Source: Thermoplasmata archaeon (GTDB lineage Archaea; Thermoplasmatota; E2; JACPAO01; JAHFTW01). Taken from it: DNA of 64,000 nucleotides. Shown here piece by piece: positions 9,557 through 36,905 of the stretch. The first letter of the stretch is position 1. Each line of letters begins with the position of its first letter. The position numbers and the translations under genes are program-made. Under the pieces are notes generated by a model. The model saw nothing but the letters and a program-made list of their open reading frames with translations, made no database searches and was not told the DNA's origin. The stretch is taken from NCBI GenBank assembly GCA_034667725.1, contig JAXDQS010000010.1, positions 1 to 64,000 on the forward strand, given 5' to 3'.

Positions 9557-10574
9557 AGGCCCGCCAGCGCCGGGCGCCTGCCGCCACCGCCAGCGAGCCC
9601 ATGGCCAGCGCCGGGCCGCCCCAGGGCGCCGGCTCCGTCCGCTGCGCGCCGGTGCCTGGCCAGGCGGAGACGGCCGCCGTGCCGCCGCCGAAGGCGAGCA
9701 CGGTGCCGTCCAGGTCCGCCGCGACGGCCTGCGCCCGCGGCTCGGCAAGCGGGGCAAGCGGCTCGAAGGCGCCGGTGCCCGGGTCGAAGGCGATGGCGGT
9801 GGCGGCCGCCGCGCCGGTCTTGCAGTCGGTGCCTCCCAGCGCCAGCAGGCGGCCGTCGTGCCCGAGGAGGGCGGCGCCGTAGGCCGGCAGGGTCGCCTCG
9901 GAGGCCGCGTAGGTGGCGGCGTCGCGCTGCGGCGCGTAGGCCAGGATGCTGGCCGGGCAGGTGTCGGGACGGCCCGGGACCGGCATGCAGCCGGCGACCA
10001 GGAAGACGGTGCCCATCCACACGGCTTGGCCCTTGGCGCACGGGAACGGCAGGCGGGCCTCCATGGACTCGACGCGGCCGAGGGCCTCGTCGTAGCGCAG
10101 GATGCGGTCGCTCGGCCCGGTGGCGGTGAGGCCGCCGAAAAGGTAGCCGCAGCCTTGGGCGCAGGCCGAGCCCGCGGGCATCCAGGCGTGCGCCGCCCAG
10201 GAGACGCCCTCCGGCAGCGCGGCGGCCTGCAGGGTCGAGCGGCCGGTGGCAGGGTCGATGGCCTCGATGGTGTTGGAATGGCTGGCGCCCCGTGCGCCCC
10301 CAGCCACCAGCAGGACCGTGCCGGTCCAGAAGAGGGCAGGCGCCTCCCGGGCCTCGCGCAGCCGCATCGGGGTCCCGGGCCCGCCGTCCAAGGTGTACGG
10401 CAGGATGGTGTCGTGGGTGGCACCTCCGGCCAGCCACGCCGTGTGGCCGTCGGAGGCAATGGCAGGGGACTGGAGGGGGAAGGGAAGAGGCTGCGGCGCC
10501 CCGCCCTCGGCTTGGCTGGCGGCGGGCGCCAGCACAAGCGCCAGGAGCAGGGCGGCCGCAGGGAGGGTCCGCAT
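9468..10574 (-). CDS. Secreted Kelch-repeat protein
   Basis: Signal peptide; repeated AGG/FGG...YDP/IDP Kelch units; stop overlaps the convergent gene. Confidence 0.7.
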   Translation of the reverse strand: MRTLPAAALLLALVLAPAASQAEGGAPQPLPFPLQSPAIASDGHTAWLAGGATHDTILPYTLDGGPGTPMRLREAREAPALFWTGTVLLVAGGARGASHSNTIEAIDPATGRSTLQAAALPEGVSWAAHAWMPAGSACAQGCGYLFGGLTATGPSDRILRYDEALGRVESMEARLPFPCAKGQAVWMGTVFLVAGCMPVPGRPDTCPASILAYAPQRDAATYAASEATLPAYGAALLGHDGRLLALGGTDCKTGAAAATAIAFDPGTGAFEPLAPLAEPRAQAVAADLDGTVLAFGGGTAAVSAWPGTGAQRTEPAPWGGPALAMGSLAVAAGARRWRAFSPRRRRCPSWPTRGRRPSTAGTRPRSTP

Positions 10575-14008: not shown

Positions 14009-16771
14009 GTGCCCCTCCTGTCGGTCGTGATCCCCACCTACAACGAGGCGGCCAACATCGCCCCGCTCTTGGCGGCGATGGAGGAGGCCCTCGCCGGCGT
14101 GGACGCCGAGTTCGTCGTGGTGGACGACAACTCGAAGGACGGCACCGCCGAGCTGGCCCGCAAGGCAACACCGCGGGCGCGCGTCATCGTGCGCACCGCC
14201 GAGCGCGGCCTCGCCACCGCCGTCGTGCGCGGCATCGCCGAGTCCAAGGGCACGTTCGTCGCCGTCATGGACGCCGACTTCCAGCACCCGCCCGCCACCG
14301 TGCGCGCCATGCTGGACCGCGCTGTTGCCGCCGACCTGGACCTCGTGGTCGGGTCGCGCTACGCCGCCGGCGGCTCCGAGGGCAGCTTCGGGCTGGCGCG
14401 CCGCACCATCAGCAAGGGCGCCCGGGCGCTCGCCAAGCTCGCGCTGCCGCCCATCCGGCGCCACCGGCTCACCGACCCCATGAGCGGCCTGTTCCTGGTG
14501 CGGCGCGAGCGGATCGACCCGGACGCGCTGCGGCCCACGGGCTACAAGATCCTCCTGGAGGTGCTGGGGCGGGCGCGGCTGGAGCGGGTCGAGGAGGTCG
14601 GCTACACCTTCCAGGACCGGCGCGGCGGCGCCTCCAAGCTCGGCAGCAAGGTCATCGTGCAGTACCTGGCGCACGTGGCCATGTTGGGCCTGGAGGATGC
14701 CGAGAACCAGCGGCTGCTGCGGTTCCTGTTCGTCGGCGCCTCCGGCGTCATCGTCAACTTCCTGTTCTTCACGTCGCTCTGGCTGGCCGGCGTCCAGCAG
14801 CACCTGGCGCTCCTGGCCGGCATCGAGGCCAGCATCCTCAGCAACTTCATCCTGAACGACCTGTTCACGTTCCGCGACCGCGCCAACCGCCCCTGGATCG
14901 CGCGCCTCGGCCTGTTCCACCTCGTGAGCCTCGGCAGCGCCGTGCTGCAGTTCGTCACCGCGACCTTGCTGGCGGACCTCCTCGGCGTCCCCCCGCTCGT
15001 GGCCGTCCCGGTCGGCATCGTGGCCGGCGTCGTGCCCAACTACCTCGGCAACCTCAAGCTCACCTACGCCGGGAAGGACGGCCCGCCCGCCCGCGCCTGG
15101 GTGCCGCTTGCCGTGCTGATCGCCGTCGCGTCCGGCCTCTACCTCACCGGCCTCGGCCCCGCCCAGTTCGGCCCCCTGGAGCCCGTGCTGCAAGGCGAGG
15201 CCTGGGGCATCAAGGACATCTACTTCGACGAGTCCTACTACGTCGTCGTCGCCCACCAGATGGACCAAGGCGTCTGGACCGACCCGTGCCACAGCGGCAG
15301 CGAGGTCATCTGGGGCATGACGGTCAACAAGGACCTCTGGCCGGTCAACTTCGAGCACCCGCCGCTGGCGAAGCTCATCATGGCCGCCTCGGTGCACGCC
15401 TACGAGACCAAGCACGGCATCTTCGAGGGCTGCCGCGCCCCCGACGACGACCACAACGGCGGCCGCGAGCGCTTCGAGGCCTGGAAGCAAGGCCTGCGCG
15501 AGGACGGCAACGCCTGGGCCTGGCGGGCGCCCTCCGCGGTCTTCGGCGTCGCCACCGTCGTGTTCGCGGCCCTGGCCGCCCGCCGCATCTACGACTCCTA
15601 CCTCGCCATGGCGCTCGCCGGCAGCTTCGTCGTGCTCGACAACCTGGTGTTGAGCTCCAGTCGCATCGCCCTGCTGGACATCTACGCCACCGGCTTCGCC
15701 GTCATCGCCGTCTACTGCGCCACCTTCGCCAGCCGCCGCGGCGTCCTCATGACCGCGCTGTTCCTGGGCCTCGGCTTCGCGAGCAAGTTCTACGTCCTGT
15801 TCGCCGCCCCGCCCATCCTGCTGCTGTCGCTCTGGATCCACTGGCGCGCCGGCGTGCTGCGGAAGCGCTGCTTCGACCTGCATCTCCTGGCCTACCCGCT
15901 GGGGTCGCTCGGCGTCCTGGTGGCCACCTACACGCCCTGGTGGGTCATCTGGATCCGGGCCAAAGGCATCGGCTACGCCCTCTGGACCTTCGTCGCCGTC
16001 CAGGCCGGCGCCATCAAGTGGGACGCCACCGGCCAGCAGGAAGGCAACCTGGTCAGCCAGCCCAACGAATGGCTGCTGATGACGACGCCCTACCAGTACA
16101 TCTCGAGCTGGCGCACCCCCGACGGCGGCGAGACTCTGTACCGCTTCATCTACGCCCTCGGCAACCCCTTCCTGTGGTGGGCCGCGTGTGTCGCCGTGCT
16201 CTACGTCCTCGTCGACTTCACCACCGATTGGCTGACGCAGCGCCGCCATGCCCCCAACGTCCCCGCCATCCTGGCCACCGCCCCCGTCGCGGACGCCACC
16301 CCGCCCATGGCCGCCATCCCCGTCGAGACGCCGGCCGCCACGCGCGCTCCGTTCCTCGGCCCCATGCGGTTCTTCGCCAGCCTGCCGCGCATCCGACAGG
16401 CGCTGCTCCTGGGCGCCTTCCTGCCGCTCTTGACCTACCTCGGCTTCCTCGGCCTCAACGCCACCGGCGGCCGCGACATGTACCTGTTCTACATGACGCT
16501 CATCGTTCCCCTCATGGCCATCGCGCTGGCCGGGCTGCTGGCGCACGTCTGGTTCCGCTTCGGCTGGCCCGGCCGCATCGTCGTGATGGGCGTCTGCGCC
16601 GCCGTGGCGTTCGCGTTCGTCTGGTTCCTGCCCGTGACCATCTACAACCCCGAGGTCAGCGAGGCGCAGTTCCACCGCATCTTCGACCTCGTGCCGTGGA
16701 TGCGCGAATGCGGCAGCGCGACCATCGAAGTCGCGGGGGAGCTGGTGCACGAGTGCCCGTTGCAGGGCTGA
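14009..16771 (+). CDS. Fusion of polyprenol-P-mannose synthase (GT2), GtrA-like flippase and PMT-like protein mannosyltransferase
   Basis: VIPTYNE/VDDNSKDGT/MDADFQHPP/DPMSG; then RFLFVGASG..VN...SNFILND.FTFRD; then FDESYY, NFEHPPLAKLI, WRAPS, SRIALLD, LGNP.LWW. Confidence 0.85.
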   Translation: MPLLSVVIPTYNEAANIAPLLAAMEEALAGVDAEFVVVDDNSKDGTAELARKATPRARVIVRTAERGLATAVVRGIAESKGTFVAVMDADFQHPPATVRAMLDRAVAADLDLVVGSRYAAGGSEGSFGLARRTISKGARALAKLALPPIRRHRLTDPMSGLFLVRRERIDPDALRPTGYKILLEVLGRARLERVEEVGYTFQDRRGGASKLGSKVIVQYLAHVAMLGLEDAENQRLLRFLFVGASGVIVNFLFFTSLWLAGVQQHLALLAGIEASILSNFILNDLFTFRDRANRPWIARLGLFHLVSLGSAVLQFVTATLLADLLGVPPLVAVPVGIVAGVVPNYLGNLKLTYAGKDGPPARAWVPLAVLIAVASGLYLTGLGPAQFGPLEPVLQGEAWGIKDIYFDESYYVVVAHQMDQGVWTDPCHSGSEVIWGMTVNKDLWPVNFEHPPLAKLIMAASVHAYETKHGIFEGCRAPDDDHNGGRERFEAWKQGLREDGNAWAWRAPSAVFGVATVVFAALAARRIYDSYLAMALAGSFVVLDNLVLSSSRIALLDIYATGFAVIAVYCATFASRRGVLMTALFLGLGFASKFYVLFAAPPILLLSLWIHWRAGVLRKRCFDLHLLAYPLGSLGVLVATYTPWWVIWIRAKGIGYALWTFVAVQAGAIKWDATGQQEGNLVSQPNEWLLMTTPYQYISSWRTPDGGETLYRFIYALGNPFLWWAACVAVLYVLVDFTTDWLTQRRHAPNVPAILATAPVADATPPMAAIPVETPAATRAPFLGPMRFFASLPRIRQALLLGAFLPLLTYLGFLGLNATGGRDMYLFYMTLIVPLMAIALAGLLAHVWFRFGWPGRIVVMGVCAAVAFAFVWFLPVTIYNPEVSEAQFHRIFDLVPWMRECGSATIEVAGELVHECPLQG

Positions 16772-26925: not shown

Positions 26926-26967
26926 GGGCCTTTGGGGTAGCTTGGTATCCTTGGAGGTTTGGGACCT
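26926..26967 (+). pseudogene. 5' half of host tRNA-Pro(UGG), interrupted by the element (attL)
   Basis: GGGCCTT TG GGGT AGCTTGGTA TCCT T GGAGG TT TGG GA CCT; no T-arm follows. Confidence 0.9.
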
Positions 26968-26972
26968 AAGGG

Positions 26973-26986
26973 CTCTCTTTGGTGCA
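26973..26986 (+). repeat. Left 14-bp subterminal inverted repeat
   Basis: CTCTCTTTGGTGCA, the exact reverse complement of 36849-36862. Confidence 0.9.
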
Positions 26987-27010
26987 TATCCCCAAGGATG
27001 TGCGCCCACC

Positions 27011-28180
27011 ATGACCGAGCAGAACCCCGAACCGGCGACCTACGACAGCCAGCAGGCCCTCCTGGCCTCCCTGCGGCGCCAGACCGAGCGCCGTATCGCG
27101 GAGTTGCCGCCGGCTTGGCAGACCCGCATCCAGGCGGAGTGGCTCCGGCGGGAGAACAAGGGCCGCAAGCCCGGCACGAACCGCTCCTGGGCCCAGGCTT
27201 GGGCGACCCTGGCCCGGACCATCGGCAACCGCGACCCCGCCACTGTCAGCGCGGACGAGTGGGAGGTCATCATCCACGGGTGGCTCAAGGACCACAAGCG
27301 GGCCAGCGTGTCCGTGCGCTGCGTGAACATCAAGCAGACGCTCCCCCGCTTCTTCCCGGACAAGCGGCTCCCGGAGGACGTTGCCAAGGCCCTGATCGTG
27401 CCGGCTGGACGGCGGTGCCTGAGCCCCGACCGGGAACTGTCCAAGGACGACTTTCTGCTGCTTCTGGATCACGTAACGACCGAGGAAGCCAAACGGGACT
27501 CAGCCAGGGTCACGGCGGAGAAGGTGGCCCTCCTGTGGACGCTCTGGGACTCCTGGATGAGGGTGAACGAGATGCTGGCCTGCCAGCGAAGCGACCGCGT
27601 CCGGGCCGGCCCCAAGACGACCTTCGGGTTGCGCCCGGAGATGCCGTTCCTCAAGACCAACGACGCCGTCCGGCAGGTCCCCATGGTAGAGGCGACCGAG
27701 CCGCTGGCCGTTTGGGACGCCATGCACCCCGCCGGCTCCAACCTGGACGCCCCCATCTTTTGCAACTTCCGATGCAAGACCGGCCTGAGCCGGCTGTCAG
27801 ACTCTAACCTGGACAGATGGCTCAAGCAGGTTGGCGACGGGTCCGGGCTCCACAAGCGGCGCAAGAAGAAGCTCAGCGCCCACGACTTCAGGCACACCGG
27901 CAACACCCGCTCCGCCCGCAACAAGTGGGCACGGACGCTACGCGCCAAGAAAGCCGGCTGGAGCAAGACCAGTCGGATGCCCGAACACTACGAACACCTG
28001 GACGAGGCCGACATGCACCGCCAGTTGCTCCAAGACGCCGGCATCGACCTGATGGGCTTCAAGCAGCAGATGGACGCCGGCAACCTCGAAGGCGCCCTCG
28101 CGGACCTGTTGACGAAGCTGCTGGAGAAGCGCCGGAACGAGCCGGCGCCCATCGTTGCGAGTGGGCCTGTGCGGATTTGA
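27011..28180 (+). CDS. int: Tyrosine recombinase/integrase
   Basis: Catalytic set R (WMRVNEM), K (LKT), HxxR (HDFRH), W (AGW), Y (MPEHY). Confidence 0.9.
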   Translation: MTEQNPEPATYDSQQALLASLRRQTERRIAELPPAWQTRIQAEWLRRENKGRKPGTNRSWAQAWATLARTIGNRDPATVSADEWEVIIHGWLKDHKRASVSVRCVNIKQTLPRFFPDKRLPEDVAKALIVPAGRRCLSPDRELSKDDFLLLLDHVTTEEAKRDSARVTAEKVALLWTLWDSWMRVNEMLACQRSDRVRAGPKTTFGLRPEMPFLKTNDAVRQVPMVEATEPLAVWDAMHPAGSNLDAPIFCNFRCKTGLSRLSDSNLDRWLKQVGDGSGLHKRRKKKLSAHDFRHTGNTRSARNKWARTLRAKKAGWSKTSRMPEHYEHLDEADMHRQLLQDAGIDLMGFKQQMDAGNLEGALADLLTKLLEKRRNEPAPIVASGPVRI

Positions 28181-28234
28181 ACCGCAGCCTCTTGGTCCCA
28201 AACCAAGAAGTCTACCAAACTAGCCTACAGGCCC
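28162..28234 (-). tRNA. Element-borne tRNA-Pro(UGG)
   Basis: GGGCCTG TA GGCT AGTTTGGTA GACT T CTTGG TT TGG GA CCAAG AGGC TGCGG TTCAAAT CCGCA CAGGCCC A; 73 nt; one D-stem mismatch. Confidence 0.9.
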
Positions 28235-28461
28235 GCAGGCCCGGCGACTCGACCCGTGCTTATCTGCGCTTGCCCGGCCGGCGGGCCTGCTAGACCGCCA
28301 AAAATCCGCGCCGCGCTGTCGCGCGGCGCAAGGATGAGCGGTTGCGGAGCAACCGCTTGCATGACGCGCCGGGAATCTCTGGCAAAGGTCCAGGCGTTTT
28401 TACGGCTTCACTCCGGCGACCCTAAACGTTATGAGCGCGCCCGCAAGTGGTACGATTGAGG

Positions 28462-28564
28462 CGGCCGCGGAGGGATTCGAACCCTCACTCCGCACGGCGC
28501 TGCTCCCGAGGCCCTCTCTCAAAGTGCTCTCTCGGTGCGGCTCCTTCCATTAGATTACGCGGCC
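28462..28564 (-). ncRNA. tRNA-like RNA with expanded (39-nt) anticodon loop and no assignable anticodon
   Basis: Perfect acceptor GGCCGCG/CGCGGCC, T arm GAGGG-TTCGAAT-CCCTC, D-loop AATGGA, stem CGCAC/GTGCG. Confidence 0.75.
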
Positions 28565-28575
28565 ATGTTTGGGGT

Positions 28576-29439
28576 TTAGGGGAAGGGGGGAGAGTCATCG
28601 GCGGGCTTGGCAGCTTGCCGCTGCCGCCTTTCGATGGAACGTCGCAAAGTGTCAAGGAACTCCTTCAACTCGTCCACAGCTTCTACATCCGCCTTCACTC
28701 GAACCTGGAACAAGTCGGTGTTCATCACCCGCCACTCCCCACTCTCCAATGGGGGCGGTGAGGGAGCGAACGCGGGGGTCGGACCTGCGGGGGGCACGGG
28801 AGCCTGTTGCGTTGCGACCTGCGGTGGCACCGTCAATGCGGACGAAGTGGCCATGGGAACCGCGGCCGGAACAGGGCTGGCGGCTGGAAGCGTGACGCCG
28901 CGCTCATCCCGATTCAGGATTCCCGCATACGCGAGGTAGTCCAGAATGACTCGGAGCGCCGCGCCTTTCTTCGCCTTGTCAGTCTCGGCCGCCAAGGCAA
29001 ACTCGCCAATCAGGCGATCTTCTGACATGACCGGTTCAAGTCGAAGCTGCTCCATTGCCAGCTCTGCAAACCAAGTAGGCAGAAGCAACTCCTTCAGAAT
29101 CGGCTTTGCCCGAGCCTCATCCACCGACCGGGCGTTCACAAATCGAATGCACTCCGCGGTCGGCAAGTAAAGCCCACGATCCGTCGTCGTGAGGAGCCGA
29201 ATTTCCTTCAGGAATCGCACATTCATGGAAGCGGCCTGAGTTGGAATCCCCTCCCCCTCGAACTTCTCCGCAGCGACTGCCTCCTGGCCGTTTCGCGTAC
29301 GGAGAACAATCCGCTTGAGGAGGTCGAAGTGAAGCGCAAACGGGTTTCGCTCCGAAGGCAAGACGTACTTGGTGAAAACCCGAGTCCGGGGCGCCCTTGG
29401 CGCCTGTTGCGTGTCGGTAGTCGCGGGAAGCAATTCCAT
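28576..29439 (-). CDS. Hypothetical protein, probably with winged-helix DNA-binding domains
   Basis: RFLKEIRLL...GLY.PT and LRVILDYLAYAGIL segments; lower GC; stop 12 bp upstream of the tRNA-like RNA. Confidence 0.6.
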   Translation of the reverse strand: MELLPATTDTQQAPRAPRTRVFTKYVLPSERNPFALHFDLLKRIVLRTRNGQEAVAAEKFEGEGIPTQAASMNVRFLKEIRLLTTTDRGLYLPTAECIRFVNARSVDEARAKPILKELLLPTWFAELAMEQLRLEPVMSEDRLIGEFALAAETDKAKKGAALRVILDYLAYAGILNRDERGVTLPAASPVPAAVPMATSSALTVPPQVATQQAPVPPAGPTPAFAPSPPPLESGEWRVMNTDLFQVRVKADVEAVDELKEFLDTLRRSIERRQRQAAKPADDSPPFP

Positions 29440-29864
29440 GCTGGGCCTCAACCCCCCGTAGCACAAGGGGGTAAATTATCCAATCGCTGACGAGCATCCG
29501 TCGTCCAGGCCACCTGACGACTAGCCACATCAACTGGAAATCTCCTGTCAAATGCTTTCACTCGCCACGCACTCACGTTCTTTCGAGCATCAGAGCGAAT
29601 GGCCATCAAGAGAAGAAGGGTCGCAAAACTCGCCAATATTCGTCCTTTCCGGGGCATTGCATCCCCGAATCATGGTTTCACGGAAGCTGTTGAATGCTCA
29701 ACATCAAGACTCTCAGTCCAGGTCGCAGAGTTGCAAGTTTGCAACTCGTTTTCAGGTTAGCGGTTCAGCTGCGCACGAAGATCCATGGAGGGCCCAGGAC
29801 TTGTGCCCATCAAGGGCGCGCCTCTAATGCCACTCGCAAACGAGTATTGCCGGAAGCGTGGATG

Positions 29865-30944
29865 CTATTGAAGCCTGGACGACAACGGCGAGGCCCGTCC
29901 GATCTGCGCGTCCACGTCATCGAGGAACACCCGTTCCCACTCCTCCACGTCGCCCAGGTCATCAACACCACCCATGACGCGCTGGGTCGCCCCGATGCTG
30001 CGCTTGGACAGGTGCCCAAAGCTGCGGTGCAGGTTGGTGGACTGGCCGTCGCCCCACGCTCCGAGGCGGTGCTGATACTCGTAGAACCCCAGGTGCCAGT
30101 CCCGCAGCGTGAACTTGACGCGGAGGTTCTCCTTGCCGCTCTGATAGTAGAGGACCTGCTTCTCCAGACTGTAGTCCGTGAGCTTGGAGAAGTCCACCAT
30201 CTCCCGCACTTGGTAGCACAAGGCATGGTAGTAGGCCTTCCCGCCGACGGCGGGCGCCTGGACGTGGAACATGCCGCGCTTGGCGTCCGGGTCCAACTCG
30301 CGGGCATACTCCACGACCGTCTGGTCCCAGCGGTCGCGGCCCTTGCCCGTCAAGTCGTAACGCGGCACCTTGACGGCCTTGCCGTCCTCCAGCCTCCAGC
30401 CGTTGAGCGTGAGGTCCTGGTGCGGGTGGCGCTTCTCGAAGCACCGCTCCCCGAAATCCTGGTAGCTCATGCTGGCCCCCATGCCCTCGCCGTAGAGGTC
30501 CACCAAGGCCCGCCACACGACGCTTGCGAACTTCTGCACGTCCCGGCTGGCCGCCATGCCCCAGCCCGTGCCGTCCGCATAAACCGGCGCGGTTTGGACG
30601 ATGTGGATGAAGCGCGGCTTCTGGCCCGTCGGGGTGCAGCGCCCGAAGCGTTCCAGGACGCCCCAGGCCCGCCGGACCTGGGCGGCCCGGACGCACCTGA
30701 TGCAGAACGGTTCCCGGTGGCACAGGACGGGCACGATGCGGTAATGGCCAGGCCGGTCGTGCGACTCGTATTTCTTGAACTCCAGGCCGCACGTCTTGAT
30801 GGCCTCCCATTCCTCCAGGTGCTGGTCCTCGAGGAACCGCATCAGGCTCGGGTGGCGATACCAGAGCTTCCGCGTCTTGGCTCGGGCCTCCTTGATGAGC
30901 CACGGCAGGCCGGCCCGCTTGACGACGGTCGCGCGCCGCGTCAT
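29865..30944 (-). CDS. Divergent IS91-like HUH rolling-circle endonuclease (Rep/transposase)
   Basis: C..H.R..P..C.R.PFC..C Zn domain, HIVQTAP, G...YQDFG....HPHQD, YYHALCYQVR, RSFGHLSKR, colinear with IS91-family motifs. Confidence 0.7.
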   Translation of the reverse strand: MTRRATVVKRAGLPWLIKEARAKTRKLWYRHPSLMRFLEDQHLEEWEAIKTCGLEFKKYESHDRPGHYRIVPVLCHREPFCIRCVRAAQVRRAWGVLERFGRCTPTGQKPRFIHIVQTAPVYADGTGWGMAASRDVQKFASVVWRALVDLYGEGMGASMSYQDFGERCFEKRHPHQDLTLNGWRLEDGKAVKVPRYDLTGKGRDRWDQTVVEYARELDPDAKRGMFHVQAPAVGGKAYYHALCYQVREMVDFSKLTDYSLEKQVLYYQSGKENLRVKFTLRDWHLGFYEYQHRLGAWGDGQSTNLHRSFGHLSKRSIGATQRVMGGVDDLGDVEEWERVFLDDVDAQIGRASPLSSRLQ

Positions 30945-31624
30945 GGCAAGAGCCCCCGGATTGGCGGGACCTGGATTCGGATGCCGCGGCGGCGCCGGTG
31001 TTCGCGTGGGTTCTCGGCGGCCCGGTCGATATGCCAATGGAAGCTGTCGAACAGGTCGCGGGCGACTTGGCGCGGCACGGCGAAGCGGTAGGCGTGGACG
31101 AGGAGGTGGCCGTCGCAGAACGTGAAGAAGCACCGCTGGCACTCGGTGCTGCCCGGGGTGCAGGTCTTGGCCGGGTAGCAACACGCAAGGTCGGCGTTCC
31201 GCGTCGTGGGCGGGCTGCAGTAGGCCACGACGGCCGGCGGCTCCGCTTGGCGGACCCGGCCCGCCAAAACGTAGGCAAAAAGCGGGCCGGTGGCGCGGCG
31301 GGAGGTGTGCAGCTTCGCCTCGGGCTCCACGAACCGGAGCTGGTCGAGGAGTTGGCGGCGGACGCTGCGCCACGCATCCACCGGCGCCGTCAGGCGCTTG
31401 CGGTGGCTGCGCGCGTGGTCCTCGCAGTAGGCAAAGCCGCAGACGCCGCACGACCGCTCCGCTCCCTTGCAATAGGCGCCGACGGCGCACCCCTCCGGCT
31501 TCGGCTGGCGGGGCGGGAAGCAGAACACCGAGCGCACCGGCGGCTGGCGGCCCAGCTTGACGAAGTAGGGGTCGAAGCAAGTCATCCGGCGCTTCCACGG
31601 CGCGAACTCCTGGTCAGCGGCCAT
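30941..31624 (-). CDS. Tandem zinc-finger protein (AN1-like)
   Basis: Two copies of C..C..CxxC-x4-CxxH-x3-H; ATGA-coupled to the HUH gene. Confidence 0.7.
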   Translation of the reverse strand: MAADQEFAPWKRRMTCFDPYFVKLGRQPPVRSVFCFPPRQPKPEGCAVGAYCKGAERSCGVCGFAYCEDHARSHRKRLTAPVDAWRSVRRQLLDQLRFVEPEAKLHTSRRATGPLFAYVLAGRVRQAEPPAVVAYCSPPTTRNADLACCYPAKTCTPGSTECQRCFFTFCDGHLLVHAYRFAVPRQVARDLFDSFHWHIDRAAENPREHRRRRGIRIQVPPIRGLLP

Positions 31625-32231
31625 GCAGCACCGTCCAGACGAACCGACCGAACCGCCACGCCTGATCAATGACCAGGACGAGGGGAACGAAACGACGCCA
31701 CGCCCCCACGACGCGGGGAAACCGGGCGCGCACCGCCGCCAAGCGAACAAGCAAGCCCACGACTAACCCCCTGGGCGGCCGGGATGTTCGCGGACTTGCT
31801 TTTGGGCCGAGTTGAAAACCCTGCCGCATGGCAGCGTCTGGGATACTACGCACATTCGCTAGGCGACGCAACTCGGCGGGAGGCGGCACGCGACCCCCAG
31901 GAAACGCCGACTACATGGGCCCTTCGCCGCGCGCTTGAGGCGGCTGCAAACAACCGCCGGGAACTCGTCTATTGGTCCCCCTTCGGGGGACCTAATCCTT
32001 GTCCCGGCGACCACTCCATCGGCCCGCGCGGCATCATCCACGGCGCTCCATCGCCCAAGCCCGTTCGACCCGCCCGGGCGGCTGGACCGCGCTGCGCGGC
32101 GGTCCCGCCGCCGACCCGGTGTTTCGGAGCGCTCCCAAGTCTCGCAAACTGTTCCCGCTTCGGCCACACGAGTTAGAAAGGACCGCCGGAAGCCGGAGCC
32201 CGCGGCACAAGTGCCGCACGGTGCCCCCGCC

Positions 32232-34856
32232 ATGACGCGCTCCCTGTCCGTCGCCTGCCTCGCCCTGCTGGCCATGGCCGCCCTGTCCCCCGTCGTCCCG
32301 GCCTCGCAAGGCACGCCCGCGGGCGACTGCACCGTGGTCCTGTTCCTGCTGGACGACGGCGCCCGCGACCAGGCCGTGCGCCAGGCCACCTTGGCCTCCA
32401 CGCCAGGCCTGAGCCTGCTAGGACGCAGCGACGGCAACCCCGGCGGCCACCGCGACGCCGTGGCCGCGTCCCTCTGTGCCCCGGCCCTCGACCCCTGCCA
32501 AACCCTGGCGGCCTTGGACGCCGCCGCCTTCCCCACCGCCATCCTGGGCTGCGCCGGCGCCCCGGACTCCTGCACGGAGGCCTTCACGGGCGACTTGGAG
32601 CTGGCCCTGGAAGGAGGCGACTGCACCGAGCTGCCCGACCCATGCGACGAGCAGACCGGCAGCGTGGTGGACGCCTACGGCGACGGCGAGCTGGTGGCCG
32701 TGGACTTCTGCGACCCCGAGCCCTGCCTGCCGGCGGCCGTGCCCGCGTCGCTGCGCGACTCGGTAGGGCCGCCCTGCCCCGAGCCCGCCGTGTGCCTGCC
32801 CGTGGCGCCGCCCGTGGACCTGCGCGACACGCCGCCGACCTGCGAGCCTGACCCGTGCCTCGACTGCCTGCCATGCCTGGACTGCCTGCCGCCCATCGAC
32901 CCCGACGCGTGCCTGCCCGTCCCGGTGCCCGTCGTCCTGCGCGACACGGTGGGCGAGTGCGAGCCCGAGCCCTGCACGGCCTGCCCGGAGCCTTGCGACC
33001 CCGGCCTCACGCCGGAGGCGAACGGCGGGGAGCCGTGCCCGGTGCCCGAGCCCTGCGCCCAGGATGGCGGCTGCGTCATCGACGCCTGCACAGTCCTCCT
33101 TGACTTCGGCCTGCCCTGCGACCCCCTGCCGTGCCTGTCTAGCAGCCGCGGCTGCGCGCCCCGCTGCGACGTGGTGCGCCTCCACATCGACGCCCTCGGC
33201 TTCCTGAGCCCCACGACGACCCCGGACGCCTGCGAGGCCACCTGCCTCCTGAACTCGGCCTTCGCCTCCGACGAGTCCAGCATGGAGGGCCAATGCAAGG
33301 AACACGCCTGCCTCCAGCCTGCCTCAGGGACGCTGACGTTCCGGGTGCCCTACGCCTGCCTGCCGTGCTACATCTACGAGCGCGGCGACGCCATCACGAC
33401 GAACCTAAACTACTACAAGGACACCGACTGCGACCAAGTGGTGGACCGCAAGGACAACTGCGACGCCGTGAAGAACGGCCCCGACGACGGGAACGGCCGC
33501 GGCCAGACCGAGGACGCCGACCACGACGGCCGCGGCGACGCCTGCGAGACAGACGACGACGCCGACGGCGCCAAGGACCACCGCGACAACTGCCCGACCA
33601 CGCCGAACGACGACCAAGCCGACATGGACGGCGACGGCCAAGGCGACAAGTGCGACGACGACCTGGACGGCGACGGCGATGCGAACGACTCCGACAACTG
33701 CCCGAAGGTGCCGAACAACGACCAGACGAACACCAATGAGCATGGGCCGGACGCCGACGCGGAGGGCGATGCCTGCGACGATGACGACGATGGCGACCGC
33801 GACAACGACGACGTGGACAACTGTCCACGCGACTCAAACCCTGGTCAGGAGGACGCGGACGAGGACGGCGAGGGCGACGTGTGCGACACGGACTCGGACA
33901 CGGACGGCGACGGCGTGAAGGACCACACCGACAACTGCGTCGAGGACGAGAACACCGACCAGAGGGACCTAGACCGCGACGGCAAGGGCGATGCCTGCGA
34001 GGACGACACGGACGGCGACGGCGACCTGGACACGGGCGACAACTGCCCCGCCAACGCCAACCCGGACCAAGCCGACCTGGACGGCGACGGCGCGGGCGAC
34101 ACCTGCGACCCCGACCTCGACGGCGACGGCATCCCCAACGGGGGCGACAACTGCCCCCGCGACGCCAACCCCACCCAGGCCAACTACGACGGGGTGGGAC
34201 AGGGCGACGCCTGCTCGGACGCCGACCGCGACGAGCTGCGCGACGACGTGGACAACTGCCCCGGCAACCACAACCCCGGCCAAGCCGACTGGAACGGCAA
34301 CGGCATCGGGGACGCCTGCGAGGGCGGCGGCGACACCGACGGCGACGGCCTAGGAAACGACGTGGACAACTGCCCGGTGGACTGGAACGGCGACCAGCGC
34401 GACCGCGACGGCGACGGTCGCGGCGACGCTTGCGACACCGACCGCGACGGCGACGGCCAGCCGAACACGAGCGACCCGTGCCCCAACGACTATGGCAGCG
34501 GCGCCCCCTGCCCCTACGACACGGGGTCCAACGCTGATGGCGACCACGTTCCCGACTCGGCCGACAACTGCCCGACGCAACCGAACCCCGGCCAAGCCGA
34601 CACGGACGGCGACGGCGATGGGAACGCCTGCGACACGGACGACGACAATGACGGCGTGGACGACGTTGCCGACAACTGCGACGTGGAGGCGAACCCCGGC
34701 CAGGAGAACCGCTACGGCGGACGCCTCGGGGACGCCTGCGACGACTCGGACGTGGACACCGTCATCGACGCCTACGACAACTGCGTCTATGCCTACAACG
34801 ACGACCAGCTCGACACCGACGGCGACGGCGTTGGCGACGCCTGCGACAGCGGCTAA
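32232..34856 (+). CDS. Secreted Cys/Pro-rich protein with a long thrombospondin type-3 (Ca-binding) repeat array
   Basis: Signal peptide; about a dozen DNCP...N..Q.D.DGDG.GDAC units. Confidence 0.85.
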   Translation: MTRSLSVACLALLAMAALSPVVPASQGTPAGDCTVVLFLLDDGARDQAVRQATLASTPGLSLLGRSDGNPGGHRDAVAASLCAPALDPCQTLAALDAAAFPTAILGCAGAPDSCTEAFTGDLELALEGGDCTELPDPCDEQTGSVVDAYGDGELVAVDFCDPEPCLPAAVPASLRDSVGPPCPEPAVCLPVAPPVDLRDTPPTCEPDPCLDCLPCLDCLPPIDPDACLPVPVPVVLRDTVGECEPEPCTACPEPCDPGLTPEANGGEPCPVPEPCAQDGGCVIDACTVLLDFGLPCDPLPCLSSSRGCAPRCDVVRLHIDALGFLSPTTTPDACEATCLLNSAFASDESSMEGQCKEHACLQPASGTLTFRVPYACLPCYIYERGDAITTNLNYYKDTDCDQVVDRKDNCDAVKNGPDDGNGRGQTEDADHDGRGDACETDDDADGAKDHRDNCPTTPNDDQADMDGDGQGDKCDDDLDGDGDANDSDNCPKVPNNDQTNTNEHGPDADAEGDACDDDDDGDRDNDDVDNCPRDSNPGQEDADEDGEGDVCDTDSDTDGDGVKDHTDNCVEDENTDQRDLDRDGKGDACEDDTDGDGDLDTGDNCPANANPDQADLDGDGAGDTCDPDLDGDGIPNGGDNCPRDANPTQANYDGVGQGDACSDADRDELRDDVDNCPGNHNPGQADWNGNGIGDACEGGGDTDGDGLGNDVDNCPVDWNGDQRDRDGDGRGDACDTDRDGDGQPNTSDPCPNDYGSGAPCPYDTGSNADGDHVPDSADNCPTQPNPGQADTDGDGDGNACDTDDDNDGVDDVADNCDVEANPGQENRYGGRLGDACDDSDVDTVIDAYDNCVYAYNDDQLDTDGDGVGDACDSG

Positions 34857-34868
34857 GGAGGCCTGCCC

Positions 34869-35759
34869 ATGAAGCCCGCCTTCCTCATCGTCGCGGCCTT
34901 GCTGCTGGCCGGTTGCGGCGGCGACCCGGACGACCGCAAGGACCCCGCGACATGCCGCGATGACTACACGCCGGTCGGGGACACCCAGCCCGGCGTGGCC
35001 ACGGTGCCCGTGCCGGTGCGCCTCATCAATGGCCTGACCGGCGCCGGCCTCCAGTCCGTCGTCGGCGTGTGGGCCCGCGGCGACGTTCCGTCCGGCGGCG
35101 ACACGAAAGGCGAGGACGCCTGCACCCTCGCCCTGGGCAAGACCGACCTGAACGGGCGCGTGGTGCTGCACACGGCACCTGGAACGTGGCACATCATCCA
35201 CCCCGGCATCGCCACCGTGGGCAAGACGTTCTGGACGTTCGAGGTGGCGGAGAACATCACGGTCGCGGAGGGTATGGGGGAGGTGGTCATTCCCGTGTGG
35301 CCGGGGGAGCAGACGTTCACCCTAACGGGGAGTCTGGAAGGGGTGGACGCGACTGGGGACTCGGAGACTGCCCAGCGGTTCCGCTTGTTTGGGGACGCCT
35401 ACGACGAGCGCGGGAGCCTGCTTCGGATGCGCCGCCCCGGCGAGCCGGCTTCCGACATGAGCATCGGGAACGTTACGCTGGCATGGACGAACGAGCCGAC
35501 CCGCGCCGCCGACCTGGGGTTCCGCTTCTTCTACGGCGACCAGTATGCCGGCGGCTTCACGGACCAGCAGGAAGGCACCGACCTAGGACCACAGCAGGAA
35601 ACCCTGCCGGGCCAGTCGTTCGCGTCTGAAGTCCGCCTGGGGGCCCTGGCGGACGGCCTGTTCATCGAAGTCTCCGACACCGGCCAACTGCTGGCCCCTC
35701 AAGGCATCCCCTTCACCCTGACCATCACGGCCCGTTTCACCGGGCGGGTGGCGGCATGA
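34869..35759 (+). CDS. Lipoprotein, hypothetical
   Basis: LLAGC lipobox; AAGGAGG RBS upstream. Confidence 0.75.
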   Translation: MKPAFLIVAALLLAGCGGDPDDRKDPATCRDDYTPVGDTQPGVATVPVPVRLINGLTGAGLQSVVGVWARGDVPSGGDTKGEDACTLALGKTDLNGRVVLHTAPGTWHIIHPGIATVGKTFWTFEVAENITVAEGMGEVVIPVWPGEQTFTLTGSLEGVDATGDSETAQRFRLFGDAYDERGSLLRMRRPGEPASDMSIGNVTLAWTNEPTRAADLGFRFFYGDQYAGGFTDQQEGTDLGPQQETLPGQSFASEVRLGALADGLFIEVSDTGQLLAPQGIPFTLTITARFTGRVAA

Positions 35760-36067
35760 CGGCCGAACAGGTGGCGGGTCAAGGAGCGTCCCCGACGTTC
35801 TGGTCTTGGCGCAATCTCGCCGGAGGCGCCTGCGGGCTCCTGGCTGGCGTCTTGTTGGCCTTGGGCGCCGCCGAGATCCTTCTGGGAAGCTTCGGCGGGG
35901 TCGCCGGGCTGGAACTGATGGCGGGCGGCTTAGGCGCCCTGATCAGCTACCTCCTGACCTCCAAGCCGAACCTAAGCCGCCGTGCCCGCTGGGTCCTCGC
36001 CGCCGCTGCCGCCTTGGTCATCCTCGCCGTGTTCCTGGCCGTCTATGGGCCGCCCGCCTGGACCTAA
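35756..36067 (+). CDS. Small three-TM membrane protein
   Basis: Hydrophobic; ATGA-coupled to the lipoprotein gene. Confidence 0.65.
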   Translation: MTAEQVAGQGASPTFWSWRNLAGGACGLLAGVLLALGAAEILLGSFGGVAGLELMAGGLGALISYLLTSKPNLSRRARWVLAAAAALVILAVFLAVYGPPAWT

Positions 36068-36527
36068 CCCAAGGGTCGCCGGCAAGCGACGAGGAACAGC
36101 ATCGGCCCGCGCGGGTCCTCGCTACGCTGCGGGCCGCGCAACCAAAGAGGAGTGGTGTGGCGAGGGAAGCTCGCTGGCGCACCGGGGCTTGGCGGCCGGC
36201 GCCCTGGGCCGGCCGCAGCCCCTGGCATCGGCCCTGCGGGCCGGGCGGGGCCTGCCGGCCCCGCGAACGCGCCTAGGCGGCCCGTGGCCCGCCGTGGGCC
36301 CGGAACGTGGCTGGCCTTGGCTGGGGCTGGGCCCTGCCGCCCGTCCTGGCCTAGACTGGCACTCGCTTGGACCGTGGCTTGGCTCCCCTTCCGCGACCGC
36401 TCCCGGACTCGCCCGCCCCGGACCCTGCGACCGCCCGACCGGCTAGACGGACGACCGGACCCGGCTCCCGCCCGGACCTGCCACGAGCCCACGACGACCC
36501 CCGCCGCCCCGGCGAAGTGAAACGACT

Positions 36528-36826
36528 GGAACCCCCCGACCGCCCGGTTCCAGACCTCCCCCACCTCCACGCAAGGCGGCCCGCCGGCATGGCTGGCGGG
36601 CGTTCTGCCGCGCGACGAACTAGGGCAAGCAACCCATCGGCTTTCCAAGTTGAAGCGCGGGAGCATGGCATCCACGCTTGCGAGCTTTCTCTGGTGTGTC
36701 CGTCGGCCTTTAGTCCCGTCAGAGTATCCGTCCATACGGACCCTTTAGGGGGTCCGTAAGTCGGCACTAAGACGGTCTAAGCCGTCGGTCCCAAGGAACC
36801 CCCAAACCCGGTTCCAAACCTCCCCC
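36528..36826. repeat. Hairpin and direct-repeat cluster near the element's right end (candidate origin)
   Basis: GGAACC-loop-GGTTCC-ARACCTCCCCC at 36528-36562 and 36795-36826; TACGGACCC/GGGTCCGTA stem at 36735-36758. Confidence 0.6.
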
Positions 36827-36848
36827 GCCCGACAAGGAAAACGAAGGT

Positions 36849-36862
36849 TGCACCAAAGAGAG
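36849..36862 (-). repeat. Right 14-bp subterminal inverted repeat
   Basis: TGCACCAAAGAGAG on the + strand. Confidence 0.9.
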
Positions 36863-36866
36863 AGTA

Positions 36867-36905
36867 TGGGACCTCTCGACGTCGGTTCGAATCCGACAAG
36901 GCCCA
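36867..36905 (+). pseudogene. 3' half of host tRNA-Pro(UGG) (attR)
   Basis: TGG GA CCTCT CGAC GTCGG TTCGAAT CCGAC AAGGCCC A; AAGGCCC pairs with GGGCCTT of the 5' half. Confidence 0.9.

Follow-up and report, generated by a model that had tools for sequence, protein, structure and literature searches.

The divided tRNA-Pro(UGG) gene and the element within it

The stretch of DNA considered here (the window, 64,000 nucleotides) forms the start of a 487-kb contig from a soil archaeon of the Thermoplasmata. It contains a host tRNA-Pro(UGG) gene that is divided into two halves by a 9.9-kb insert, 26968-36866, and this insert carries a tyrosine integrase gene (int) together with a complete tRNA-Pro gene of the same anticodon (Table 1). 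The source assembly is a metagenome-assembled genome (MAG) of 2.3 Mb with a G+C content of ~70%, which is distributed over 26 contigs and is 90% complete. The insert is discussed in what follows as an integrative element which appears to break its target tRNA gene without rebuilding it, and to bring a replacement for that gene with it.

Table 1. Features of the insert and of its junctions with the host tRNA gene (coordinates are those of the window)
Feature	Position	Strand	Basis or remarks
Host tRNA-Pro(UGG) 5' half, tRNA positions 1-41	26926..26967	+	host-type tRNA promoter region upstream
Left attachment (att) core copy TGGGACCT; shared core TGGGACC = tRNA positions 34-40	26960..26967	+	
Left inverted-repeat arm, 14 bp, CTCTCTTTGGTGCA	26973..26986	+	
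Tyrosine integrase, predicted, 389 aa, intact	27011..28180	+	Pfam, PHROG, catalytic residues, GC3 frame plot
Complete tRNA-Pro(UGG)	28162..28234	-	Rfam 58.6 bits, ARAGORN
tRNA-like gene, 39-nt insert replacing anticodon loop	28462..28564	-	Rfam tRNA 40.1 bits
Conserved core protein, 359 aa, N-terminal Cys/His cluster, probable HUH-type endonuclease	29865..30944	-	
269-aa protein, upstream of and overlapping the HUH-like gene	30941..31750	-	
Thrombospondin type-3 repeat (calcium-binding) cargo protein, 973 aa	31935..34856	+	Pfam TSP_3 E 6e-81; NCBIfam
Open reading frame (ORF)	34869-35759	+	no family match (Pfam, NCBIfam, PHROGs)
ORF	35756-36067	+	no family match (Pfam, NCBIfam, PHROGs)
ORF	36064-36735	-	no family match (Pfam, NCBIfam, PHROGs)
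Right inverted-repeat arm, 14 bp, TGCACCAAAGAGAG	36849..36862	+	
Right core copy and host tRNA-Pro(UGG) 3' half, tRNA positions 34-73	36867..36905	+	

The insert is flanked by an 8-bp direct repeat, TGGGACCT, which ends the 5' half of the host gene and starts the 3' half. When the halves are merged through this repeat a sequence of 73 nt results, which ARAGORN calls as tRNA-Pro(UGG). Compared over its full length with the intact tRNA-Pro(UGG) genes of same-genus genomes, it shows 92% identity for G002 and 85-89% for G004, G005 and G008 (host tRNA genes have no encoded CCA). Taken by itself, the 5' half is 93-95% identical to the 5' halves of the intact G002 and G008 genes, and a CTTAT box lies upstream of it, similar to the boxes of the other host tRNA-Pro genes. 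With ARAGORN and Rfam no tRNA is detected at either junction, and no tRNA sequence beyond the 7-8-bp core is found at the ends of the element, such that the mark of classical, gene-restoring integration is absent. The split gene and the intact tRNA of the same anticodon inside the insert had both been proposed in a preliminary description of this DNA, and both are borne out, the former by the sequence itself, ARAGORN and Rfam, the latter by Rfam and ARAGORN. On sequence grounds, a chance origin of the halves is excluded: they fit one another perfectly, they match their orthologues, and their layout recurs in five other elements.

The integrase and the carried tRNA

The integrase gene starts 44 nt inside the left junction, in a reading frame that is backed by the GC3 frame plot. 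Its predicted product matches the Pfam family PF00589 (E 9.4e-6, 25.9 bits) and a PHROG integrase (E 4.5e-9), and the residues R184, H291-x-x-R294, W317 and Y327 are invariant among eight integrase homologues; by these signatures the protein is a divergent tyrosine recombinase.

The carried tRNA gene stands tail to tail with int, its 3' end overlapping the final 19 nt of the integrase gene, and has an AT-rich box of its own ~30 nt upstream. It is 73% identical to the split host tRNA. In this regard, sequence comparison shows that a hybrid made of the host 5' half and the cargo 3' half has mismatches in both the acceptor and the anticodon stems. A whole-assembly search with ARAGORN and Infernal/Rfam for another intact tRNA-Pro(UGG), which had been set beforehand as a refuting test, returned none, and the carried gene is the sole tRNA-Pro(UGG) of the assembly; the remaining tRNA-Pro genes, Pro(GGG) and Pro(CGG), are both located on contig C3. 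Three extra 'tgg' calls made by ARAGORN in its intron mode, with 'introns' of 137-581 nt, were rejected as false, being invisible to Rfam and without similarity to tRNA-Pro.

Related elements

A search of 5.8 billion proteins with the integrase yielded seven relatives of 30-53% identity, and the contigs with retrievable DNA (L067, L068, L069, L070/71/72 and L098) represent five distinct elements. All five have the same order of features: host genes, a tRNA-Pro 5' half ending TTTGGGACCT, a conserved motif upstream of int with the consensus CCCTCTTTGGTGCA, int itself and a complete tRNA-Pro(UGG). The complete tRNA abuts the int stop on the opposite strand in four of these relatives, making five of six tail-to-tail arrangements when the window is counted, and in the outgroup L098 (30% identity) it lies 336 bp downstream of int on the same strand. 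All five of the abutting cargo tRNAs are preceded by an AT-rich box at a similar distance, and all of their stems are kept, with compensatory changes at 9 of 25 pairs. It is these compensatory changes, together with the upstream boxes, which argue that the cargo tRNAs are functional. The structural part of the disrupt-and-complement strategy put forward in the preliminary description, which also advised looking among integrase homologues for a split tRNA accompanied by a cargo tRNA of the same anticodon, has in this way held up; the pattern is present in five of five related elements and, with the window, is a conserved design of the integrase clade seen in six.

Right junctions were recovered for L069, L067/L099 and L070/L100, two of them by contig extension, and the inserts of L069, L099 and L100 measure 7.4, 12.8 and 20.2 kb, respectively. 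Both junctions are known, the window included, in four elements. At each of the recovered right junctions the motif is present in inverted form, followed after 3-4 bp by the core and by the 3' half of the tRNA gene, which fits the 5' half at the left end, and every reconstructed empty site is a tRNA-Pro(UGG) by ARAGORN. Among the disrupted host genes at least three sequence types can be distinguished, with differences all along the stems; the core is constant, and the host flanks differ as well. Since both the sequence types of the host tRNAs and the flanking genes differ, the integrations are independent of one another. Profile scans of genome contigs and viral contigs gave no further integrase relatives and those of metagenome contigs gave two distant matches; a class-wide search over 197 genomes found more distant integrases only.

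These comparisons bear on two other accounts of the locus. The first, which is suggested by the genome being a MAG, holds that the junctions are an artefact of metagenome assembly. Such an artefact is barely conceivable, given that at least five other samples, assembled independently, show the same junctions with other flanks and other lengths, and that the window sits in a contig of 487 kb. The second account holds that a classical, restoring integration was later scrambled, so that the internal tRNA would be the restored host gene and the halves would be debris. It is true that int reads toward the tRNA 3' end, which is the classical attL layout, and that the locus differs by a ~48-kb inversion from that of four relatives. 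The halves, however, are in direct orientation, they fit one another perfectly and have 73% identity to the internal tRNA; moreover, an internal tRNA stands between the halves in four independent elements whose flanks are unrelated. Later scrambling is therefore a highly improbable origin for the arrangement. An origin of the arrangement through a simple inversion, with ends in the left half and in the internal tRNA, was also considered and was rejected, as the resulting hybrid would have mismatched stems.

The attachment core and its inverted repeats

The duplication of TGGGACCT noted in the preliminary description does exist as an 8-bp repeat, but the core that is truly shared is one base shorter. 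This core of 7 bp, TGGGACC, is deduced from the L070/L100 host, which reads TGGGACC-C at its right junction; the eighth base (T) matches in the window host only through the anticodon-stem pair A29-U41. A length of 7 bp is normal for the overlap region of a tyrosine recombinase.

Just inside the junctions are the two arms of a perfect 14-bp inverted repeat. All six elements retain the sequence of the left-arm motif ahead of int, as do more distant integrase relatives, and the right-arm arrangement is present at the right junctions of L069, L099 and L100 too; in L069 both arms have a matching T-to-C / A-to-G change. Because it is the sequence, and not just the complementarity, that is kept across the integrase clade, the inverted repeats are read as a protein-binding site. 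They are probably bound by the integrase, and the left arm may overlap the int promoter.

The complementarity of the arms can also be read in terms of RNA, namely that the gene is a functional split tRNA, the halves of which are transcribed separately, pair via the 14-bp repeats and are trans-spliced by the archaeal endonuclease and a ligase. Several observations are consistent with this proposal: a perfect 14-nt complementarity (15 nt in L069, where the arms have the matching change on both sides) would let the trailer that follows the 5' half pair with the leader that precedes the 3' half, RNAcofold gives a cloverleaf-like dimer with the acceptor, D and T arms intact, and the host splices tRNA-type introns, an intron-like insert being present in a neighbouring tRNA-like gene. 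A bulge-helix-bulge, however, is found in none of the nine splice registers that the duplication permits, either in the window or in L069. Register 37/38 comes closest, but its central helix contains one U-U mismatch and two G-U pairs and the bulge is not bordered by an outer helix; in the cofold the bulge is of 6 nt and on the wrong side of a 4-bp helix. Moreover, among integrases of 30-53% identity the repeat keeps its sequence, and it occurs as a single copy beside complete tRNAs in distant relatives, and every element has a complete tRNA of the same anticodon, which would be superfluous if the halves were rejoined. Trans-splicing is thus very unlikely. Were it to occur, with a relaxed splicing endonuclease processing the duplex, the trans-spliced host tRNA would illustrate in a present-day organism how split tRNAs have long been suggested to arise, by insertion of a mobile element; that such elements are natural generators of surviving trans-spliced split tRNA genes is, by the same token, a proposition to be given very little weight.

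More distant integrases of the same superclade, from the same genus and from other Thermoplasmatota, are found head to head with complete tRNA-Arg, -Gln and -His genes (L077-L081, L096). A single CTCTCTTTGGTGC-like motif stands 6-10 bp from the 5' end of those tRNA genes, in a weaker form at tRNA-Gln, and is absent beside the tRNA-Pro of L083. The arrangement hints that these distant relatives integrate at the 5' side of the tRNA, a mode for which the pTN3 group is the only archaeal example described.

Proposed integration and replacement, and a possible dependence of the host

Disrupt-and-replace integration is the best explanation of 26968-36866, and a likely one. The tyrosine integrase would recombine the att site of the element with the anticodon loop of the host tRNA-Pro(UGG), the att site being the 7-bp TGGGACC between the 14-bp inverted repeats and otherwise devoid of tRNA sequence. 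Integration would then leave two dead tRNA halves in place of a rebuilt gene, and the complete tRNA-Pro(UGG) directly behind int, with its own AT-rich box, would take over the decoding of CCA. Carriage of a whole tRNA would spare the element from having to supply a 3' end compatible with the 5' half of the host gene, such that hosts with tRNA-Pro genes that diverge widely outside the anticodon loop would become enterable. A classical attP, by contrast, would be expected to fail in many hosts because host/cargo hybrids have mismatches in their stems. The host would, as a side effect, be dependent on the element unless excision were precise. We infer from this layout that the insertion arose by the action of the integrase, that the carried tRNA is expressed and charged, and that the host depends upon it; that it exerts an addiction-like effect on the host is speculation.

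With respect to this dependence, standard wobble rules do not allow CCA to be read by tRNAs with C34 or G34. CCA codons occur in host ORFs at a frequency of 1.9 per 1000, speA included. A UGG tRNA would therefore be needed. It might nonetheless be argued that the split and the carried tRNA are both real and that the host is independent of the latter, either because the missing 10% of the genome holds another UGG gene or because the decoding of CCA is dispensable. This argument draws on the incompleteness of the MAG and its 26 contigs, on the rarity of CCA at the above frequency, and on the fact that tRNA genes are often missed in MAGs. It is, in our view, unlikely to be correct, as a single tRNA-Pro(UGG) is found in each same-genus relative examined, and as exactly this isoacceptor is carried by six of six elements that cut this gene, which is hard to explain if it were unneeded; non-redundant tRNA sets are, moreover, usual in archaea (PMC3293823). 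Should there be a second, unassembled tRNA-Pro(UGG), the dependence argument would be gone and the architecture of the element would be unaffected.

A number of observations weigh against disrupt-and-replace integration or its consequences for the host. The assembly being 90% complete, a second tRNA-Pro(UGG) may lie on unassembled DNA, and all the comparison elements, like the window, come from metagenome assemblies. The Pfam score of the integrase is just under the cut-off of 27.1. No empty site in a syntenic relative is found among the same-genus genomes, where both flanks are rearranged; in these genomes another block stands ahead of speA, and the intact tRNA-Pro is located elsewhere. Finally, five of the six cargo tRNAs contain the 7-bp core, that of L070 having all 8 bp, and would thus be expected to be open to attack by the integrase of their own element. 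Shielding of the cargo tRNA by an altered core was considered in this regard and was rejected on account of that same retention.

Relation to known systems

The closest parallel is tRNA-dependent lysogeny, which was genetically proven in 2024 in actinobacteriophages (Fionnbharth/K4, Cluster L, Gaia and others), an older hint, cited in the same work, being the Lj965 prophage of Lactobacillus johnsonii (Guerrero-Bustamante & Hatfull 2024, PMC10865867). In these phages the carried tRNA was shown by experiment to be required for survival of the lysogen (PMC10865867). They have a tyrosine integrase, an attB inside a tRNA gene and a core of only ~7-10 bp, and no functional tRNA is rebuilt; the window element likewise encodes a tyrosine integrase, has its attB in a host tRNA gene and a short core, and carries a tRNA-Pro(UGG). 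Unlike the actinobacteriophages, it has an archaeal host (Thermoplasmatota), no detected viral gene and an HUH-type protein in its conserved core, and its integrase clade is unrelated to theirs at the family level. Moreover, the core is flanked by long inverted repeats, and the carried tRNA abuts or overlaps int tail to tail in five of the six elements. No published archaeal case of tRNA-dependent lysogeny was found among those papers of the searched library that use the term, as judged by title. The strategy is, in other words, not new to biology; what is new is its being the conserved design of an archaeal and apparently non-viral family of elements.

For archaea, a 2021 review of tyrosine recombinases gives the reconstitution of an intact tRNA gene on integration as the rule, describes only the pTN3 group, which targets the 5' half, as unusual, and makes no mention of Thermoplasmatota (PMC8371274). 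Classical elements (the sublocation classes of Williams 2002; pNOB8-type and SSV-type) resemble the window element in their tyrosine recombinase, in a crossover at the anticodon loop, in a stem-loop mimicking the core site and in having int beside the junction. Their attP, however, holds the displaced part of the tRNA and the gene is rebuilt, whereas the window element rebuilds nothing. The SSV-type elements are further distinguished by a split int, that of the window element being unsplit.

Split tRNA genes with trans-spliced halves have reportedly been described from Nanoarchaeum equitans and Caldivirga (Randau et al. 2005, Fujishima et al. 2009). There are evident likenesses to the window in the separate 5' and 3' halves, in a break near 37/38 and in a trailer of ~14 nt complementary to the leader of the other half. 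The window differs in having no bulge-helix-bulge, and in having an 8-nt duplication, a complete tRNA of the same anticodon and a mobile element between the halves. A different comparison is with the tRNA-Thr(GGU) of Caldiarchaeum subterraneum, where a recombinase-bearing insert replaces the 5' part of the gene, to position 27 (Sugahara et al. 2012, PMC3293823). Here too there is a recombinase-bearing insertion, with an orphan 5' fragment of a tRNA near a complete tRNA of the same anticodon. In Caldiarchaeum, however, the complete tRNA is a hybrid of host and element, whereas in the window it is a separate gene of the element and both host halves survive.

What emerges is that a break-and-replace strategy, previously proven only for phages of Actinobacteria, would here be the fixed design of an archaeal integrase clade. 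That the six target genes differ throughout their stems and share only the anticodon loop suggests that carriage of a whole tRNA avoids hybrids and widens the host range. The compact module, made up of the integrase, the 7-bp core and the tRNA, could be turned into an integration tool for the Thermoplasmatota, a phylum for which, to our knowledge, there is no genetic system. In genome annotation, an orphan tRNA half should not be read as decay, nor the tRNA of an island as mere codon-usage cargo.

Other contents of the element

The 359-aa core protein is common to the elements of the window, L067, L069 and L070 and has about 50 homologues, the few of these with a source name being from Thermoplasmatota MAGs. 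No Pfam domain is found in the homologues, and for the protein itself there is no sequence-family match, no match to a PDB sequence and no Foldseek match at E <= 0.001. An AlphaFold model built on 49 sequences has a pLDDT of 94, a first model from 4 sequences (pLDDT 57) having been discarded. The best structural neighbours of the later model are SIRV1 ORF119 (Z 7.5), parvovirus NS1 (7.0/6.8), AAV Rep (6.1), Helitron (6.0) and TrwC (5.9); the leading matches are, in other words, HUH nucleases, at Z values of 5-7.5 that are in the middling range. The residues H173-P-H175 and Y244 are conserved across the 49 sequences, and the His-Pro-His motif and the conserved tyrosines suit the HUH family. From the model and these residues, the protein is a probable HUH replication initiator, of the rolling-circle kind, or relaxase-like. 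Since a probable initiator of this kind belongs to the conserved core, the element looks like an integrative rolling-circle plasmid. No capsid, portal, terminase or other viral hallmark was found in the window element with Pfam, NCBIfam and PHROGs; several of its ORFs are without a family, and it may yet be a virus.

The 269-aa protein is weakly conserved in L067 (31% identity to the product of 15652-16059) and has no family match in Pfam, NCBIfam or PHROGs. The 973-aa cargo protein has at least 11 TSP_3 repeats; shorter TSP3-like stretches occur near tRNA-Pro in G004 and G005. In the larger elements L067/L099 and L100 the cargo includes HTH_HVO_0163-type regulators, an ImmA/IrrE-type M78 peptidase, an HEPN (Swt1-type) protein and a 1696-aa protein. 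As judged from these gene contents, the family has a fixed int-tRNA-HUH core, and what varies is the cargo located between this core and the right end.

The tRNA-like gene at 28462-28564 has perfect acceptor and T arms, and neither a sensible anticodon nor a canonical intron can be assigned to it; no homologue of it was detected in the rest of the genome or in the related-element loci examined. Between this gene and the HUH-like gene, the segment 28600-29800 has a G+C content of 0.57-0.61 against a backbone of ~0.70, with coding-type GC3 bias in no frame. It is apparently non-coding, and possibly a replication origin region.

The host locus and its tRNA-Pro alleles

A segment of ~48 kb, which starts just beyond the tRNA 3' half on the speA side, takes in 36906-64000 of the window and extends to about C10:85400, is apparently inverted relative to the same-genus genomes G002, G005, G006 and G007. 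In those four relatives speA is preceded by the block found at C10:85424-87495 in G000, and in G005 the intact tRNA-Pro is then followed directly by the reverse of C10:83732. One breakpoint of the inversion lies no more than ~470 bp from the tRNA.

Within the genus there are two very different native, promoter-bearing alleles of tRNA-Pro(UGG) (loci L013-L017 and L034-L037). Alleles like the split host gene are found in G002, G004, G005 and G008, and those like the cargo of the element in G003, G006 and G011. This distribution suggests either that the tRNA of the element was captured from a host of the second allele type, or that such elements drive turnover of the tRNA-Pro(UGG) gene.

Other insertions are also apparent around this gene. 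At L054 (G004:C5), positions 10281-10305 are an exact copy, of 24-25 nt, of the 5' end of tRNA-Pro(UGG), ~165 nt upstream of the intact gene, and in G005 two integrase-like genes adjoin tRNA-Pro. Judged by these arrangements, the tRNA-Pro(UGG) gene is a hot spot for several kinds of insertion.

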